From an uncultured Gemmatimonadales bacterium (GTDB lineage Bacteria; Gemmatimonadota; Gemmatimonadetes; Gemmatimonadales; GWC2-71-9): 64,000 nt of DNA. The position numbers and the translations under genes were made by a program. Positions 16,965 to 58,668 of this stretch are shown here, one piece after another. The notes beneath the pieces were generated by a model that saw nothing but the letters and a program-made list of their open reading frames with translations, did no database searches and had not been told where the DNA came from. Within the stretch, counting starts at the first letter, position 1. Each line of letters opens with the position of its first letter. Location of the stretch: positions 704,001 through 768,000 of the forward strand of contig CAWHFW010000005.1 in the NCBI GenBank assembly GCA_963828735.1, read 5' to 3'.

Positions 16965-17008
16965 TGAGGGCGGTGGGGCTCGAACCCACGACCTAGGGAT
17001 TAAAAGTC
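16965..17008 (-). repeat. tRNA-Lys 3' fragment (att site)
   Basis: 16962-17008 identical to 50113-50159 (47 bp); similarity continues about 30 bp past the tRNA 3' end. Confidence 0.92.
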
Positions 17009-17427: not shown

Positions 17428-17469
17428 CTCTGGATCAGGAGAGTGCCGGGTCCGAGCGAAGGAGGAGCA
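17428..17469 (+). pseudogene. Degenerate tRNA-Gln(CUG) 3' half
   Basis: CTCTGGATCAGGAGAGT then a decayed T arm; inverted relative to 18585-18626. Confidence 0.65.
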
Positions 17470-18584: not shown

Positions 18585-18626
18585 TTGCCCCTCCTGGGCT
18601 CGAACCAGGACTCTCCTGATCCAGAG
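18585..18626 (-). pseudogene. tRNA-Gln(CUG) 3' half (att-like)
   Basis: CTCTGGA TCAGG AGAGT CCTGG TTCGAGC CCAGG AGGGGCA A: anticodon loop to discriminator, no D arm upstream. Confidence 0.8.
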
Positions 18627-40046: not shown

Positions 40047-40182
40047 TCACTGGGACCAGCTGGCCACGACGTCCGTTCCGGCGCCTGGCTCAGTGACGAA
40101 CATGAGGGCGACGGCGGCGCGGGCCGCGCGATGCATACTGGTCAGCCCAGCGTCGTCGGCACAAATGTTCTCGAGGTCGAAC
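40047..40182 (-). pseudogene. HATPase C-terminal fragment, inverted copy of 49428-49565
   Basis: FDLEN...GLTSM..FVTEPGAGTDVVASWSQ*. Confidence 0.8.
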
Positions 40183-41697
40183 TCACCCCATGCGGATGAG
40201 ACCGCGCTCCACCGCCTTGGCGACCGCATCGGTCCGGCTGCTCGCACCGAGCTTCTCCAACAGGTGGCTGAGATGGATCTTGACAGTGGCCTCGCTGATG
40301 AAGAGGGTCTCCCCGATCTCCCGGTTGGACTTCCCCTCGGCCACCTGGCGGAGCACGCGCATCTCCTGCGGTGTGATCTGCGCCCGGGTAATCCGCGCCA
40401 CCAGCTTAGACGCGACGGTAGGTGAGACCCACGTGCCGCCGGCGTGCACCGTACGCACGCAGGCTACTAGGTCGCCTCGGGCCACGTCCTTTAACAGGTA
40501 GCCCTTGGCTCCCGCGAGCAGCGTGCGATCGATGTCGTCGTCCGTGTCGAAGGTGGTCAGGACCACCAGCACCGCCTCGGGGAACTCCCGCCGCAGGCGC
40601 TCGACGACCTGGAACCCGTCCAATTTCGGCATCTGGAGATCCAGGAGCGCCACGTCCGGCCGCTCCTGGCGATACAGCACGATGGCGGATTCACCATCCT
40701 CCGCCTCCGCGACAACCCGGATGTCCGCCTGCTCGTTGAGGATCTGGGCAACGCCGTTCCGGACAATCGCGTGATCGTCGGCCAGGAGGACTCGGATGGG
40801 CACGCTCGCCAGAATGGCGGCGCGCACCGCGCCGACGGGCGGCGTCGCGACTGTCACCCTCGTCGCGCCGTCCGTCCCCAGCGCACGCCCGAATGCCTCG
40901 GCCGACTCGAACCGGTCGGCGGCGACAGGCGCGAGGGCGCGGGCCACCGCCTCGTCCACCGCGGCGGGCACGCTGGGTCGCGCGTGGCGTACCCTCGGCA
41001 CTTCGCCGCTGAAGCGCTTGGCGATGATGGCCTGCGCGCTGGGCCCGGTGAACGGCGGCTCGCCAGCCAGCATCTCGTAGAGCACGGCGCCGAGCGAGAA
41101 GATGTCGGTCCGGGCGTCGAGCGCGCGGTCGCCCGCGGCCTGCTCGGGGCTCATGTAGGCCGGGGTCCCGATCGCGAGTCCGATCTCGGTCAGCCGCTCA
41201 CCGTCGGGGGTGAGCGCGCGGGCGATGCCGAAGTCGGCGACCAGGGTCGAGCCGTCCACGGTGAGCAGAATGTTCTCGGGCTTGATGTCGCGGTGAACGA
41301 CGCCGTGCTTGTGGGCGTACTCGAGCGCGCGCGCCGCCTCGGTGGCGATCCGGAGCGCTGCGTCCACCGGCAGCTGTCGCTCGCGGGTCAGCCGATCGCG
41401 GAGCGACTCCCCTTCCACAAAGGGCATGGTGAACCAGAGCCGCCCATCCGCCTCGCCGGAGTCCAGCACAGTGAGAATGTGCGGGTGCTGGAGCCGGGCC
41501 GCGAGCCGGATCTCGAGCTTGAATCGCTCGGGGCCGAGCGTCTGGGCCAGGTCGGGGTCGAGGACCTTGAGCGCGACCAGGCGGTCGTGCCGGAGGTCGT
41601 GGGCGAGGTACACCGCAGCCATGCCACCGTGGCCCAACTCGCGGTCGAGCACGTACCGGTCGCGAAGCGCGTCGGCCAGGGCTGTGGGGACGGTCAC
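40183..41697 (-). CDS. Ser/Thr kinase - REC - LuxR HTH fusion protein
   Basis: Single ORF: GHGGM, VALK, HRDIKPEN, DFG, GTPAYMSPE, then ADDH, LLDLQMP, LTTFD, YLLK, SNREIG..ISEATVK. Confidence 0.88.
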   Translation of the reverse strand: MTVPTALADALRDRYVLDRELGHGGMAAVYLAHDLRHDRLVALKVLDPDLAQTLGPERFKLEIRLAARLQHPHILTVLDSGEADGRLWFTMPFVEGESLRDRLTRERQLPVDAALRIATEAARALEYAHKHGVVHRDIKPENILLTVDGSTLVADFGIARALTPDGERLTEIGLAIGTPAYMSPEQAAGDRALDARTDIFSLGAVLYEMLAGEPPFTGPSAQAIIAKRFSGEVPRVRHARPSVPAAVDEAVARALAPVAADRFESAEAFGRALGTDGATRVTVATPPVGAVRAAILASVPIRVLLADDHAIVRNGVAQILNEQADIRVVAEAEDGESAIVLYRQERPDVALLDLQMPKLDGFQVVERLRREFPEAVLVVLTTFDTDDDIDRTLLAGAKGYLLKDVARGDLVACVRTVHAGGTWVSPTVASKLVARITRAQITPQEMRVLRQVAEGKSNREIGETLFISEATVKIHLSHLLEKLGASSRTDAVAKAVERGLIRMG

Positions 41698-41768
41698 GGT
41701 GATGCCGGGTGGGGGTCGGGGACAAACCTGTGCGCCGCGGTGCCGGAATGCCAGCACGCGCGCGGGTA

Positions 41769-44588: not shown

Positions 44589-45218
44589 TTGGCGAGCGTA
44601 CCCATTCGAGTCCTCCTGGCCGACGACCACGCCATCATCCGAAACGGCGTAGCCCTGATCCTGGACGAGCAGCCCGACATTGAGGTCGTCGCCCAGGCAG
44701 AGGACGGTGAATCGGCCATCGTGCTGTATCGGCAGGAACGCCCTAACGTGGCACTGCTGGATCTCCGGATGCCGAAGGTGGAGGGGACCCAGGTCGTCGA
44801 GCGGATCCGGCGGGAGTTTCCCGAGGCGGTGCTGGTAGTCCTGACCACGTTCGACACCGACGACGACATCGATCGCGCGCTGCTCGCGGGAGCTAAGGGT
44901 TACTTGCTGAAGGATGTGACCCCGGGAGATCTAGTAGCCTGCGTGCGTACGGTGCACGGCGGCGGCACCTGGGTCTCACCCACTGTCGCGTCGAAGCTGG
45001 TGGCGCGGATGACCCGGGTGCAGATCACGCCGCAGGAAATGCGCGTGCTTCGCCAGGTGGCCGAAGGAATGTCCAACCGGGAGGTCGGCGAGACCCTGTT
45101 CATCAGCGAGGCCACCGTCAAGATCCATCTCAGCCATCTCTTTGAGAAGCTCGGTGCGAGCAGTCGGACCGATGCGGTCGCCAAGGCGGTGGAGCGGGGC
45201 CTGATCCGCATGGGGTGA
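44589..45218 (+). CDS. NarL/FixJ family response regulator
   Basis: REC + LuxR HTH; TTG start after GAGGTG. Confidence 0.92.
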   Translation: MASVPIRVLLADDHAIIRNGVALILDEQPDIEVVAQAEDGESAIVLYRQERPNVALLDLRMPKVEGTQVVERIRREFPEAVLVVLTTFDTDDDIDRALLAGAKGYLLKDVTPGDLVACVRTVHGGGTWVSPTVASKLVARMTRVQITPQEMRVLRQVAEGMSNREVGETLFISEATVKIHLSHLFEKLGASSRTDAVAKAVERGLIRMG

Positions 45219-45267
45219 CATCGGTCGCTGACCGCTCGACACGCCCGCGTCCGGGGAGCATTAAGGA

Positions 45268-49623: not shown

Positions 49624-49698
49624 AAGCCCAACATGACCTAGGTCATTGTCGGGCTTCATTGCCCCTCCTGGGGTCGAATTAGGGCTCTCCTGATCCAG
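49624..49698 (-). repeat. Degenerate tRNA-Gln 3' half + palindromic hairpin (42 bp repeat copy 2)
   Basis: CTGGATCAGGAGAG...CCAGGAGGGGCAA at 49659-49698; 49624-49665 matches 20652-20693. Confidence 0.8.
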
Positions 49699-50115
49699 CA
49701 TCAGGAGATTTGCCGGGGGGTGCCTATGTTGCCGTTGAGAATGTCCAAGCCGGCGTCAGTCGGCACTGCCCAAGAGGTCGAACGAAGTACGACTCTCGTA
49801 GACGGCGCGTCTAGCCGAGTAACGCTTCCCGCCTAAATGGCTCAGGAAAATCAGCCGGTCCAGGGATTTTGTGCCGCGAATTTCTCGAGGGGTAACACGG
49901 CTAGGCGATAGGGGCGCTTGGGGGGTCAGGCAGGGTCTCTCACTGGGCTCCCCCTCGGGCTTCTGGCACCTTTGGCACCCCCGGGGTGCCGCTCAGAAAA
50001 CCGCCAGCCAGCGAGAAGACGCCGCGGTGCTCCCAGGTGGAGTCCAATTACAGTCTCGGAGTGCTGGCGGCACCAGAATTAGACCATCAAACTAGACCAC
50101 GAAAAGCTAAGGCTA

Positions 50116-50188
50116 TGAGGGCGGTGGGGCTCGAACCCACGACCTAGGGATTAAAAGTCCCTTGCTCTACCAGCTGAGCTACGCCCCC
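50116..50188 (-). tRNA. tRNA-Lys(UUU)
   Basis: Full cloverleaf GGGGGCG TA GCTC AGCTGGTA GAGC A AGGGA CTTTTAA TCCCT AGGTC GTGGG TTCGAGC CCCAC CGCCCTC A; CCA not encoded. Confidence 0.97.
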
Positions 50189-50625
50189 GTGATCGAGGAA
50201 ACCTCTTCGGACTGGAGCGCTTGCACAAGCCAGCCCACTCCCTCGCGCTCCCGCATCCCCGCCACTGGTGGCAAAAATGAGGGCACTTCTGTTCGGGGCT
50301 TATGCGGACAGCGCCGCCCGCCGCCGTTGCCCACCGCCCTGATAGACTTAAGCTCATCTGACGCTTCGCAATTGTACCCAAAATGTAGCGTTCTAAATGG
50401 GAGCGCCCATGGATCTGACGACCCTGGCCTACCGCGCGCCCCGGGTATCGTGTGCAGCTCAGCCAGTGCTGTTGCCGGGCCCCTAAACACATTTTCATCT
50501 GCCGTTCACGCTCGCTTCGGGGCCCGGACGTACTGTTCACGGGTGCACACTGTCCCCGTCGCCTCTGCTGTGAAAGGCGGCGCCATGTTGCGACTTCACG
50601 CTGCCGCCGTCTCTCACCGGAGCGC

Positions 50626-51126
50626 ATGATGCGACACCTCATCGCTGGCACTGTCCTTCTCCTCCTCGGTTGTGACGCGGGATCCGTCGCGGCCCCCGAG
50701 CCCCCGGCCTTTAAGACCGACCGGGTCAGCTCCCTCCAGTACACCATTCCGCTCAACACGGCCGTGTTTGTGCCCTGCGCGAACGACAATCAGGGCGAGA
50801 TGGTGGTGATCGAGGGAACCCAGACCTGGAATTTCTTCGTGAACGCAGGGCCGGACGACACGCTGCAACGGGTGCGCATACGGATGGACGGCGTCGGGAC
50901 CGGCGAAGTGACCGGCGCCACCTGGGACCTGCGCCATATCGAAAAGGACATCTGGCACCGAACCGCCGAGGGCCGTTATAGCGACCACTGGACCGCCCTC
51001 GCATTCCTGCGGGGCGAGGGTAGCGCGCCGGACTTCCATACGCAGTTCATGCAATTCTATCGCGTGGACCAGGCCGGGAACCTGCTCCCGGGGGGGATCC
51101 AGCGCAACGTGGCCACCTGCCGGTGA
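50626..51126 (+). CDS. Hypothetical lipoprotein
   Basis: MMRHLIAGTVLLLLGC lipobox; GGAG RBS. Confidence 0.65.
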   Translation: MMRHLIAGTVLLLLGCDAGSVAAPEPPAFKTDRVSSLQYTIPLNTAVFVPCANDNQGEMVVIEGTQTWNFFVNAGPDDTLQRVRIRMDGVGTGEVTGATWDLRHIEKDIWHRTAEGRYSDHWTALAFLRGEGSAPDFHTQFMQFYRVDQAGNLLPGGIQRNVATCR

Positions 51127-51322
51127 CGACGGTGGCGGCGGGCAGGCGGAGCGTCTCAGCTCATTGCGCCACCGGTTGCACTACAGACCCCACCGCATGC
51201 CGGTAGATCGCGGGCTATCCCGCGAGTACGCCCCTCGGAGAGCCCGCCAGGTCCGAGGGGCAACGTCTGCAGGAACAGACGTGGTCTCTCCGCAGCCGCA
51301 TTCACAGTAGCTCATTGTTCCC

Positions 51323-51630
51323 TCATGCTGGTTTGAGGCCCCGCCGGGCTGCCTCCACTCTCGCCGCCGTCTCCCGGTCCCCCTGCCCCACCATGTGCGC
51401 CGCGATCGCCGCGGCATCTTCGTCCGGATAGGCCTCCGGGACGTGCTTCATGTAACGGAGGGTCATCGTGGCAGTCGCGTGGCCTAGCAGCTTCTGAAGG
51501 CGCACAATCGGGACGCCTGCCATTGCAGCGTGAACGGCGAACGTGTGTCTCGCGTCATGGGGCGTGGCGCCAGCGATCCCGGCGGCCTTGCACGCGCCAT
51601 CCCAAGCGCGCGTGTCGCCCGTGCCAGGGA
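51323..51630 (-). pseudogene. Tyrosine recombinase C-terminal remnant
   Basis: TPHDARHTFA...LQKLLGH....MTLRY (HxxR, H, Y); N-terminal part missing. Confidence 0.85.
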
Positions 51631-52468
51631 CTCCGCTACTACTCTGAGCGGGAGAGCACGCCGGACCGGCTCGCACGGAAGGCGAAAGAGCTATACCGGC
51701 GGGCGGGGAGCGAGGACGGCAGCGAGCCGTGGATAAAGGCTCCGTGGATGCGATGGAACACCTTTAGTCGGCTCGTGCTAGCCGGCCGTGAGGCGAGCAA
51801 TACCGCGGATGCGATTATGAACTATCGGCTCGGCCAGGCGCTGGAGGCGATCATAGGCGGCCGCGAGCGACGGGCGCGGCGACGTGCGGCGTGACGGTAC
51901 TGGCGATCGCCGGCGGCCGGGACTGGCCAGGAAAGCCGGTGAGTCGCGCGATCACCCTCGCCGCCGGCCTGGGACCTGGCTCAGATCATGAGATTGAGCA
52001 CTCTTGTCTCAGACCTGGCGAGTGCTTCCTTCGTGCTGCTTCCACTGCTGTCACGTGCCTGTGCCACGCCTGTTTAGGGTCGGGGGATAGGACAGCGCAC
52101 CTATCCTCGAATGCAACGGCTCCAAACTTCCCTATCTCAGGCGGTAGGCCAAGGGCCTCTTGCAGCTGGAGGAATCTGAGGCTTTCCTCTGCCAGCCACT
52201 TCAGCTTCCAGTACTGGTCTCGTTTCTCCGACTGTGCCCGTGCCTCTTCTCGGGACAAAGCAGGCCTTGGATGGTAGCCTCTCCCTCAACGGTAACCGAC
52301 ATGGCGTGGGCTGTTCCGCAGCCCAGCAGGACCGAGGTGGATGGCGCTGGCAACGCTCTCACTCGTAGCTCGGCACTCGATTATGGTCGTCGAGCTCGCT
52401 GCAACCGCCGGCCGACGTAGGGCCAACGCCTTTTAGCCGGCCACCGCGGGCGTCACGGTGTGTGCGCA

Positions 52469-55029
52469 TTAGCGAGACGTACCAATCAAGCCGTTGAATC
52501 GCGGATCCTCCGCAAGGCGTCGGAACCACCAGCCTTCGTCATCGCGCAGACTAGCTCGGTACCCCGGATTCACGGTGAGATAGGCTCTGAGTTGAGTCAG
52601 TGCCTCGGTGTTATCTCCCACCAGAGTCCACGCAAACGCGGATATCAGAGTGAGATCTGCCGTAGGATCGATTTCAGGATTGGCCTTCGTATGGTGGAGG
52701 AGGCTCCTCGCGCTGTCCTTCTGTTCGGCGCGAGCCAACACGGCCGAGACGAGCACCCGTGCGTACAACTGTTGGTAGCGCCTGTCTCCGGGGTCCTTAG
52801 TGAGCAGAACCATCGAATCCGCCAATGCCCAAGCTCGCACGACGTCTGGTGGTTTGAAATCGGTGGTGAGCATCAACAGGTCACATTCCACGAAGTTCGG
52901 GTCCTCTGGGAACCGTTGCCGCCCCTCCTGGCACCGTTGGTTCGCGCTAGCGAACTGCCCCCGTCGTAGTCGGCCAGTATAAGGCGCCGGAAGATCACGG
53001 CCGCGTTGTCAAGGTAGGCATCCGTTTCCAATGCTTTGTTTGCGGCATAGGCTACATCGACCTTAGTCTTTCCCGGGGCATTGTTGTAGAGGTGCGATAG
53101 TGAGGCATAAGCGCTGGCCTGGGCGGGGTTGAAACGTGTTGCTTCCTCCAGATCGGTTTGGGCGCTCGCTAGCAGTTTGTCTCGCTTGGCCGAATCCGCT
53201 TCGAGCCCCATCAGCCAACCCCAGTATTTGAGCGTGCCTCGTAGCTCGATCGCATCGGCGCTCTTCGCGTTCAACTTGAGCGCCCGCTCCGCGTGGCCTA
53301 GGCCCGAGTCAATCATGCGGCTGGCCAGGGCTAAATCCTGCGGTGCTTGGCGTGTCCTCCGAAGGTTGAGAGCGGCGCGGAGTATGCTGGGATCGGGCCA
53401 CTGGGGATCTAGCAGCTCGGCAATCGCTGCAACAGAATCACCCACGAGGTAGAGACGGCTCGACCCAGCTATGTTGCCAGCCTTGTGCAGCGAGTCCCCC
53501 TTATTACGCGCTAGGAGTGCCCGCTGGTATTTCTCCCAGGCATCGGTGTTCCTAGCCTCAGTCCTTGTCCGGCCCAACTCAACAGCCCTGCCGAGGCGCT
53601 TCCGAACCAGCAGGGCCACCTCGTCTGAGAGGCTATCAGATAGTGCTATGAGGTCCCTAGCCTGTTTCTTGACCGTCGCGCGGTCCAACTCGACCCCAGC
53701 ATCATCGAACAGGCGGACCGTCACCCAGATGCTATCGTGCTCGGGCTCGACGCTGCCCCCCACGAGCGTCCCGACCTTGAGGGCACGCGCAATGCTGTCA
53801 CGCGCCACAGTGGTTTCGCGGTACTGGGCTACGCCACCCTGCGAAACAACCGACAAGCCTTTGACGCTGGCCAGGGTCCGGATCAGGCTTTCGGTAAGGC
53901 CACTTGTCAGGTAGGCCAATTCGTGCTTGGGGCTGTCATCCGTGAAGTAGAGGACGGCGATGCGCTTCCTCTCGAGGCCGCCTTCCACCACTGAGTCTGT
54001 CGAGCGCGCTGTTCGCCCAATGCTCACCCACCAAACCACGAGAGTCCCGATTGCCAGGGCGGTCAGGGCGATGGTCCATTTGTGTGGTTGCCGCCATCTG
54101 GCCGCGGCCGACTTGTCGGCATCAGGAACCCCTACCGGCACCGTCAGACGGTTGTCTCCCTTCGAGTATGCACGTGTGGTTCCTGCGCTATTCGTCTCGG
54201 GCGTAGCGAGCGCCCTAGCAAATGCTTCAGCAGTAGGGAAACGGTCGGCCGGCGTCTTGGCGAGCACACGCTCAAGGACCTGGTCTACCTTGACCGGCAC
54301 GGTCTCGCGAACAGTTCGGACATGCGGGATCGGTTCACGCAGCCGCTTCGCCAAGATGGCTTGGGCCGAGGTGCCGGTGTACGGTGCCTCACCCGCGAGC
54401 ATCTCGTATAGGACGCACCCCAGGCTGTACAGGTCCGACCGCCCGTCCAGAGCTGGGTCCGCCAAACTCTGCTCTGGGCTCATGTACGCGGGAGTTCCCA
54501 CTGACACACCGGTCTCGGTCAGCTGCTCGCGGCCGGCTGCTTGCAACGCACGAGCAACCCCGAAGTCGGCCACGACGGCGTGCCCACGAGAGAGGAGGAT
54601 GTTTTCCGGCTTTATGTCGCGGTGTACGATACCCTGCCCGTGCGCATATCCCAGCGCGTCGGACACTTCACCAGCGATCTGGAGCGCGTCCTCGACCGAC
54701 AGCTGGCGCTCGTGCCGGAGGCGGTCACGCAGTGACTCGCCCTCGACGAATGGCATTGTATACCAGAGCTGCCCGGCCGCTTCGCCAGAATCGAGCACCG
54801 GCAGTATGTGGGGATGTTGGAGGCGTGCAGTCGTCCGTATCTCGCGTTGGAAGCGCTCCGGGCCGAGCGTTGCCGCGAGCTCCGGGTGAAGCACCTTCAG
54901 AGCTACCATTCGGTCGTGCTTCAGCTCGTGCGCCAGGAACACCGTGGCCATGCCACCACGGCCCAGCTCGCGCTGGAGCTGATAGCGGCCGGCCAGAGCC
55001 TCTTCGAGCGATTCTCGCAGGTCTGCCAC
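52469..55029 (-). CDS. Ser/Thr protein kinase with TM, TolB-N-like and TPR-like regions, frameshift near 52960
   Basis: GRGGM, HRDIKPEN, DFG, GTPAYMSPE; RIAVLYF; one G short in a G run. Confidence 0.85.
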
Positions 55030-55323
55030 GTGGGGTTAGCAGGGACGGAGGATATGCAAAGATTACAGGGTGTCGTCGGAAGGGCTATGAGCCCGATCGG
55101 AACACCTTGTGTATCAAGCGCCTACCAAACCCGCTCCTCGGGGAGCACGACGTGGTGAAAGCCTATACTGAGGTCCACGACGTACTGGTGGCACTTTTGG
55201 GGGCAGACAGCGGGGGGTTGGGCGGACTGGACGGACTGAGCCAGACAGCGAACCGCGCGACTGCCAGAGGGAAACGGACCGGGGCGGACAGCGGCGGACG
55301 CAGCCGGAATGATCCGCAGGCCC

Positions 55324-55361
55324 TTAAAAGTCCCTTGCTCTACCAGCTGAGCTACGCCCCC
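55324..55361 (-). repeat. tRNA-Lys 5' fragment (att site)
   Basis: Identical to 50151-50188; identity ends exactly after the 7 nt anticodon loop. Confidence 0.92.
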
Positions 55362-55412
55362 GAGAGCGGAAACATCAGCCGCCAGCGCGGCCCGACCTGC
55401 GCCCGGCGCCCA

Positions 55413-55685
55413 CTACGTCGAGTCGATCCGCCGGCGCCGCTCGTCCTGCCGCGCCTGCCGTTCCGCGTCGGCCTGGCCGGCGGACGGAACGCCGCGAAAC
55501 TCGAAGTGCCGGTCATCGAGCGCCCGATCGCGGGTGAGTGGCACCCGCTCGCGCGCCCGCAGTCGGAGCGCCAGCACCTGGTCCGTCAGCACCGCGGCCG
55601 GCTGCCACTCGTTCGCCGCGATGCCCGGGTAGAGGTGCGCGAATTCGGGCTTGAGCATTGCCTGGCGAATCCCGGGCCTCGACAT
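55413..55685 (-). CDS. Hypothetical protein
   Basis: LKPEFAHLYPGI..W..A, HFEFRG; tandem with the next ORF. Confidence 0.6.
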   Translation of the reverse strand: MSRPGIRQAMLKPEFAHLYPGIAANEWQPAAVLTDQVLALRLRARERVPLTRDRALDDRHFEFRGVPSAGQADAERQARQDERRRRIDST

Positions 55686-55692
55686 CCCGGCG

Positions 55693-55983
55693 TCACCGTC
55701 TCCGGCGCGCCAGCAGAAAGCCCAGCGCGATCGCCGCGACTCCGATCAGCGCGGCCGATCCGATGGCGCGCTTCACGTTCTTCGACAGGCCCTTGTGCCT
55801 CTCGGCGATCTCGCGCGACGTGTCGGCCAGCGCCGAATTGACCCGCTCGCGCTGCTCGAGCCACTCATGGATGAGGCCCGGCTCTTCCACCTCGGTGGGC
55901 TTGGCGGCCAGGCGGCGGCGGACCTCGTCCTCGCCGATCGAATCCAGCTCCCTCCAGACCTGCTCACGCGTCTTGCGGACCAT
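55693..55983 (-). CDS. Hypothetical protein with C-terminal TM
   Basis: MVRKTREQVW...; GGGAG RBS. Confidence 0.55.
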   Translation of the reverse strand: MVRKTREQVWRELDSIGEDEVRRRLAAKPTEVEEPGLIHEWLEQRERVNSALADTSREIAERHKGLSKNVKRAIGSAALIGVAAIALGFLLARRRR

Positions 55984-56100
55984 TGGATCTCCCGAGCCAA
56001 GGCCGGTGTCCGGCCGTTGAGGGAATGTACCTACTCGAGGCGCGCGGGGCATATATTCCACTCCCCGGTGCGCCTCCGCCCTCGCACGAGGTCATCCTCC

Positions 56101-57994: not shown

Positions 57995-58668
57995 ATGATC
58001 TCGCTGCTCATCACCGGCACGGACACGGGCGTCGGAAAGACCTGGGTCGCACGCGCGCTGTCGCACGCGCTCGTTGCGGCGGGCCGCCGAGTCGTCGCCG
58101 TGAAGCCGGTGGAGACGGGATGCGGTGGCGAGCGGTCCCATCTCGAGGATGGCGCGCTGCTCGCCACGGCCACGGGCCAGGCGGAGCCGCGCGGCGCGCT
58201 CCTCAGGTTCGCCGCGCCGGTGGCGCCCGCGCTCGCGGCGGAGCGGGAAGGCGAGACCATCGACCTCGACGCCTGGTGCTCCGGATCGAGGAGTCGAGCG
58301 CCGGCGCCGAGGTGTTGCTGATGGAGGGTGCCGGTGGGCTCTTGTCGCCCATCACGTGGGAATGGACCGTGGTGGACCTGGCGCGCCCGTTCGGGGCGTC
58401 AGTGCTTCTGGTGGCGGCCGATCGGCTCGGGACCATCAATCACGTGCAGCTCACCTTGAGTGCGCTGGAGCTCGCTGGATTGGATGTGGCGGGGGTGGTC
58501 CTGACTCCGCCGGAACGACCGGACGAATCGACGGGAACCAACGCCGCCTCCATCGCTCGGGTGAGCGGCCTCGAGCGGGTGCTCGGTTTGCCGCGGGCCG
58601 ACGATCCCTCCGGCGCGCGGGACGCGATCGCCCCCGTGCTCGGATGGCTCGACAGCCCCGCCCGCTGA
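57995..58668 (+). CDS. bioD: Dethiobiotin synthase, frameshift near 58272
   Basis: ITGTDTGVGKT, KPVETG, EGAGGL, LGTINH. Confidence 0.88.

Follow-up and report, generated by a model that had tools for sequence, protein, structure and literature searches.

How does a bacterium come to carry, a few kilobases from its only tRNA-Lys(TTT) gene, an exact copy of that gene's 5' half? The question is raised by a 64,000-nucleotide stretch of DNA (the window) from an uncultured Gemmatimonadales bacterium (GenBank assembly GCA_963828735.1, contig CAWHFW010000005.1, positions 704,001 to 768,000), in which ARAGORN calls a single tRNA-Lys(TTT) on the minus strand, at 50188->50116. No second Lys(TTT) gene was called in the 4.78-Mb, 7-contig genome that holds the window (G000, 97.5% complete). 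Upstream of the intact gene, on the same strand, lies an exact 39-nt repeat of tRNA positions 1-38 plus one upstream base (-1) (BLAST E 2e-13 against the whole genome). The two copies (50151-50189 and 55324-55362) are 5,173 bp apart, and the repeat terminates at the last base (position 38) of the anticodon loop CTTTTAA. Folding of the half tRNA plus 34 nt gave a z of -0.8 and no substitute structure. A preliminary description of this DNA had recorded the copy at 55324-55361, ending with the anticodon loop, and an integrase remnant between it and the intact gene 5.17 kb away. Both observations hold, with the identity extending to 55362 and the remnant matching PF00589 (E 2e-11). The locus very probably arose by integration of an element whose attachment (att) site, attP, carried a promoter and the tRNA's 5' half, followed by decay; the layout of the integrase clade, the repeats in its spacer and a promoter-like motif are the grounds for assigning both parts to attP.

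The empty site is found in relatives. In 8 of 35 relative loci (G007, G010, G019, G222, G234, G235, G253, and G260), the 90-aa open reading frame (ORF) that now adjoins the displaced half, together with its neighbours, lies within ~250 nt of an intact tRNA-Lys, as had been predicted for genomes without the element, in which the sequence from 55362 onward should directly precede the intact gene. DNA synteny supports this for G007, G010, and G019, and the remaining 27 loci have different upstream DNA or reach a contig end. On the other side of the insert, the flank 50189-50296 has matches in G020, G009, and G237, the one in G020 beginning immediately after the stop codon of an integrase of the clade described below; the earlier suggestion that the tRNA now sits behind element-derived DNA is thereby upheld. 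G020 is an independent copy of the window layout, with an integrase that ends 111 nt before the tRNA and with both arms 74-79% identical to those of the window (74% for the attL arm, 55184-55323). An intact tRNA-Lys gene pattern was present in 74 of 103 genus genomes, and an exact 5' half followed by non-tRNA sequence in four (G000, G020, G258, and G265), each time upstream of the intact gene on the same contig and strand. Outside this family, a 5' fragment stands 5.9 kb upstream of the Lys gene of G025; that insert (L040:7811-13817) encodes a BsuBI/PstI-type restriction-modification fusion and a HigB/HTH pair. No clade integrase was detected in the inserts of G258, G265, and G025. Two genomes, G237 and G257, have the host ORF 3-3.5 kb upstream and an element-type promoter in front of the tRNA, with no half left and no degenerate 5' half scoring above shuffled sequence; these are older insertions fixed in place.

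We give very little credence to an assembly artefact, in which an empty chromosome and a circular element, or two strains, were joined at the tRNA repeat. Short-read contigs do leave the 38-nt repeat unresolved, and the contamination estimate of G000 is 5.2%, but the independent assemblies G020, G258, and G265 have the same layout, and a circle whose integrase is broken, and in which no replication gene was seen, would be unlikely to persist. Moreover, run X1 yielded contigs that join the half to the element arm on one side (55034-55353) and the host flank on the other (55333-55721), and contigs that join the tRNA with 50160-50923, all with 0-2 differences. No joint at the att sites was seen among the run contigs, to which that search was confined.

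The remnant places the element in a wider clade of tyrosine integrases. Searches with the remnant and with an alignment (A1) of full-length relatives yielded 76 clade loci, some fetched twice; three came from unpublished genomes (G003, G054, and G197), on which no claim rests. An intact same-strand tRNA starts within 1.5 kb downstream of the integrase stop in 56 of the 76, at a distance of 97-132 nt in 46 of these. A further 11 loci have less than 300 nt of downstream sequence. Among the other nine, five are junctions of integrase, promoter, 5' half, and arm (L091, L092, L097, and G223, the last twice); these attP-type junctions hold only the 5' half after the integrase, as proposed in the preliminary description. 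In L090 and G251 the integrase is inverted beside a 5' half, and L052 has no tRNA. L311:1378-2806 and L090 are clade elements at a CAT tRNA whose inverted integrase adjoins the displaced 5' half and not the intact gene. Seven tRNA types serve as targets (Lys-TTT, Lys-CTT, Cys, Ser-TGA, Ser-GCT, Phe, and a CAT tRNA). A 5' half lies 1.3-13.7 kb upstream in eleven other clade elements, at six tRNA types (two in G020 and one each in G117, G252, G251, G235, G194, L217, L073, G165, and G026); a number of them come after a further arm and probably mark junctions inside tandem arrays. As a control, 154 distant integrase loci were taken, of which 131 could be scored: two had the clade layout, 16 were conventional, and 113 had no tRNA near or too little sequence, so that 18 had any tRNA near.

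A quick tree unites 53 clade rows in a single group with a Shimodaira-Hasegawa-like approximate likelihood ratio (SH-aLRT) support of 100; the window remnant belongs to this group and is placed among users of Lys-TTT, Lys-CTT, and CAT tRNAs. Two distant alphaproteobacterial loci with the clade layout (L235 and L281) fall outside the clade, and no 5' half was found within 10 kb of either. The clade search matched 9 of 301 genomes in a phylum sample, from which three later-found loci provided a small fresh test (layout in 3/3, promoter motif in 2/3). Of clade members in named records, five of six are titled Gemmatimonadota and one Bryobacteraceae. Full-length members have 404-420 aa, with PF00589, a weak SAM-like domain, and assignment to phrog_1. 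Among 146 ORFs, clade elements carry mixed cargo with an occasional MobA/VirD2 relaxase, AAA_25 helicase, terminase pieces, and HTH_17 proteins; because of this mixed cargo and the occasional mobility genes, we infer that they are small and mobilisable or satellite-like. No close clade member was found among the best 80 viral contigs listed (best segments 21-36%) or among GenBank phages or plasmids, and comparison with the Protein Data Bank returned generic recombinases only.

These clade data also bear on the idea that part of the tRNA was duplicated without any integrase and that unrelated DNA entered between the two copies. Such an origin would suit a locus that keeps only an integrase remnant, at 1,135 nt and not ~105 nt from the tRNA, yet it is scarcely credible: the breakpoint falls exactly at the loop end, the layout is clade-wide, and the arms refute it, both being conserved in G020 and at another tRNA type.

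The spacer of ~105 bp between integrase stop and tRNA in the clade contains 12-bp-period repeats and a promoter-like motif. A TGCC repeat of this period follows the integrase stop in 27 of 42 distinct clade loci, compared with 0.4% of random windows, and occurs in both arms of the window (50266-50285 and 55186-55205); by analogy with phage lambda, these repeats are putative arm-type sites. Among the tRNAs of G000, only Lys(TTT) has the arm repeat, and the notion that its Ser, Cys, and CAT tRNAs also stand behind fossil arms was rejected. Of 42 distinct upstream stretches, three of which are not true arms, 36 have the motif TTGnnn-16/18-nAnnnT ahead of the tRNA, as opposed to 4% of shuffles and 0.8% of random positions. 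The native Lys promoter has a TTG -35 box in five of the eight empty-site relatives and lacks it in three. The native promoter in those five thus has the same design as the motif, and attP has the look of a promoter captured along with the 5' half. An AA follows the -35-like hexamer in most element arms and not in native Lys promoters. Given this conserved motif, the element may supply the promoter of the rebuilt tRNA-Lys(TTT).

The converse claim, that the original promoter now reads into the half tRNA, goes beyond what the sequence shows: at the orphan site only a -10-like GATGTT (55371-55376) is left, and the TTG -35 box is absent. That the box decayed because it was orphaned is unsupported, since 3 of 8 empty-site relatives are also without it. 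A terminator scan of 55000-56100 found no terminator, and read-through into the half tRNA from the -10-like box or the 90-aa ORF is therefore possible.

Several results weigh against integration through such an attP. No contig from the four runs spans the whole 38-nt repeat, the best reaching 30 letters on the repeat side. The promoter-like motif was defined after part of these sequences had been viewed and also stands before 12 of 35 leading host tRNAs in G000, and a strict sigma70 consensus scan returned no promoter at either element end. Additionally, the search for a 5' half came up empty in G109 (a single contig) and in the fragmented G128, G173, G137, and G043, and the quick tree came from a short search with 23 partial rows and long-branch warnings. 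The last of the nine loci set apart above, L219 (42% identity, on a long branch), is arranged towards its tRNA in the conventional way. The tRNA faced by L219:801-2164 is a tRNA-Cys, a possible polarity reversal within the clade.

Lambda-type exchange across a 7-nt loop yields B-O-P' and P-O-B', and an intact tRNA is retained when P' includes the 3' half or when P includes a promoter and the 5' half. At this locus, a tyrosine-integrase element would have recombined within the 7-bp anticodon loop of tRNA-Lys(TTT), to which the crossover is provisionally assigned. Its attP would have run from the integrase stop through arm-type repeats, a sigma70-type promoter, and tRNA positions 1-38 to a second arm. 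Integration would have fused the host 5' half to element DNA (55324-55362) and rebuilt the whole tRNA gene at the far end, behind the element promoter. During decay most of the integrase would have been deleted and ~1 kb added beside the arm, leaving the kinase and lipoprotein-like genes as what is now carried. Apart from the remnant, no clade integrase was found in G000, so that none is intact in cis or in trans; the element is presumably immobile and would not excise without a helper integrase.

The preliminary description overlooked an exact 44-nt 3' fragment (tRNA positions 30-73) at 17008->16965, 33 kb downstream of the gene; islands therefore lie on both sides of tRNA-Lys. The downstream one (16965-50115) is a 33-kb conventional island in which no integrase was found. 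The sequence after the 3' fragment resembles that after the intact tRNA, which suggests that this island holds tandem 3'-type units. Both fragments could alternatively mark one 38-kb element that divided the host gene, left it unrepaired and has a complete tRNA-Lys of its own (50188-50116). The 5' half at 55361 and the 3' half at 17008 do lie on either side of the intact gene, with an overlap in the anticodon loop, and such complementation is known for mycobacteriophages at tRNA-Lys(TTT) (PMC10865867). A single 38-kb element is nevertheless highly improbable. The 3' fragment and the intact gene share the arm-like sequence that follows them, as in a tandem 3'-type junction; G020 has the 5' element and no Lys 3' fragment in ~24 kb downstream; attP-type junctions of the clade carry the 5' half only; and the locus has a 39-nt core with an identical gene rebuilt and no separate divergent tRNA.

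Within the downstream island, tRNA-Gln(CTG) fragments occur at 49659-49714, 18585-18626, and 17428-17469, far from the Gln gene; they mark Gln-type cassettes nested in the Lys island. Elsewhere in G000 (C5:2457709-2520606), tRNA-Gln(CTG) is followed by ~17 partial 3' copies in 63 kb, in a cassette-like array, and the tRNA-Phe at C5:1638442 has five partial 3' copies.

Features of the locus are collected in Table 1. The G+C content of the insert is 63%, compared with 70% in the upstream flank. The integrase remnant comprises the C-terminal 95 of 416 profile positions, with the HxxR and H/Y motifs kept and the N-terminal three quarters gone; its ORF (51323-51676, minus strand) scores 44.2 bits against PF00589 (cut-off 27.1) over model positions 112-168 of 172. 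Within the extra DNA, a lipoprotein-like ORF (~50626-51126) has no Pfam match. The split in the kinase gene falls in a run of C where contigs of runs X5 and X6 hold one extra base; the kinase therefore probably corresponds to a single gene of ~853 aa, with an assembly error or strain variant behind the break at 52957.

Table 1. Coordinates in the window of the integrated element, its junctions and adjoining features.
Feature	Coordinates	Strand	Remarks
Exact tRNA-Lys 3' fragment (positions 30-73)	16965..17008	-	End of separate conventional 33-kb island downstream
Intact tRNA-Lys(TTT), sole copy	50116..50188	-	At attR junction: element arm and 5' half, then 3' half
att identity block, intact-gene copy (positions -1 to 38)	50151..50189	-	39 nt, identical to 55324-55362
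Promoter-like TTGTGC-17 nt-GAGGTT	50200..50228	-	11 nt before tRNA; candidate element-supplied sigma70-type promoter
12-bp-period TGCC tandem repeat	50266..50285	-	Putative integrase arm-type sites, by analogy
Extra DNA, ~1.0 kb, integrase end to att arm	50297..51322	+	Missing from G020
Tyrosine-integrase remnant	51323..51610	-	Profile positions 322-416 of 416
Truncated ORF adjoining integrase break	51523..51894	+	Part recurs next to tRNA arm in G237
Cargo Ser/Thr protein kinase gene	52469..55029	-	718-aa and 140-aa frames, split near 52957
Second 12-bp-period TGCC tandem repeat	55186..55205	-	In attL arm 55184-55323
Displaced tRNA-Lys 5' half	55324..55362	-	attL junction with host flank
Residual -10-like GATGTT of native promoter	55371..55376	-	Without TTG -35 box at canonical spacing
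90-aa host ORF	55413..55685	-	Native upstream neighbour of tRNA-Lys in relatives

Elsewhere in the window, 40178-40811 and 44590-45223 form a 634-nt inverted pair, 87% alike, from a response-regulator duplication, one copy being in frame with a kinase domain in 40186-41757. A bioD-like gene (AAA_26) at 57995-58668 is apparently split over two frames.

The reverse-polarity arrangement is rarer than the conventional one and is already catalogued. Zhao and Williams reportedly described, in 2002 (J Bacteriol 184:859), a genomic island with a 5' tRNA gene fragment. Islander accepts the configuration, with a 5' fragment in 159 of 3,919 islands (PMC4383910), and 9 of 88 islands in Sinorhizobium meliloti have one (PMC11476347). 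The locus shares with the Islander class a 5' fragment upstream of and co-oriented with the intact tRNA on the same replicon, an anticodon-centred site, a tyrosine integrase between the copies (a PF00589 ORF), an element length of 5,173 bp, within 2-200 kb, and an empty target site in relatives (8/35 loci); it differs in that its integrase is a remnant and its host a member of Gemmatimonadota. In archaeal pTN3-like integrases, use of the 5' half is a clade trait, said to be seldom met in bacteria (PMC8371274). There too the chromosomal site (attB) is the tRNA 5' half and the rebuilt gene is expressed from an element promoter, but these integrases are suicidal, with the att site inside the integrase gene and the integrase promoter used, whereas the window clade has att ~105 nt downstream of an unsplit gene, arm-like repeats, and a promoter-like motif of its own. 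Conventional anticodon-loop islands of the lambda/HP1 type share the 7-bp loop overlap and a PF00589/phrog_1 integrase of ~410 aa; in contrast, they have the 3' half copied in attP and retain the host promoter, and the island ending at 17008 is of this kind. With tRNA-dependent lysogeny the locus shares the supply, by element DNA, of expression of an essential tRNA-Lys(TTT) (PMC10865867), but there the core is ~10 bp and a separate, divergent phage tRNA complements (PMC10865867), whereas the window gene is rebuilt at the junction. The accessible part of PMC12884075 holds nothing on polarity. No account of the integrase clade was found in the literature searched; supplements and database tables were outside its scope, and TIGER/Islander tables may list the elements.

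The locus itself is thus a decayed member of a known minority class, and any novelty is at most that of a bacterial clade which switches targets and retains 5' polarity. On a wider reading we are evenly divided. It holds that this is an undescribed bacterial integrase clade of fixed 5' polarity, nearly confined to Gemmatimonadota in what was searched, which has changed targets among at least seven tRNA genes with YYNNNAA-type loops and has retained a single arm-plus-promoter module throughout. With the displaced half later lost, as in G237 and G257, such insertions would amount to a permanent promoter swap of essential single-copy tRNA genes, and the sole tRNA-Lys(UUU) gene of G000 may consist wholly of mobile DNA, one element having contributed the front and another the back, through the same loop and with opposite polarity. 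As a single locus the element is a fossil, but it marks an integrase family whose intact members (G252, L217, and L076) are compact integrase/attP pairs for a phylum with few genetic tools. The presence of both polarities on one attB can serve to test if polarity is decided solely by the attP arm on which the tRNA copy lies. Should the promoter swap be real, mobile elements would set the expression of essential tRNAs in these soil bacteria.

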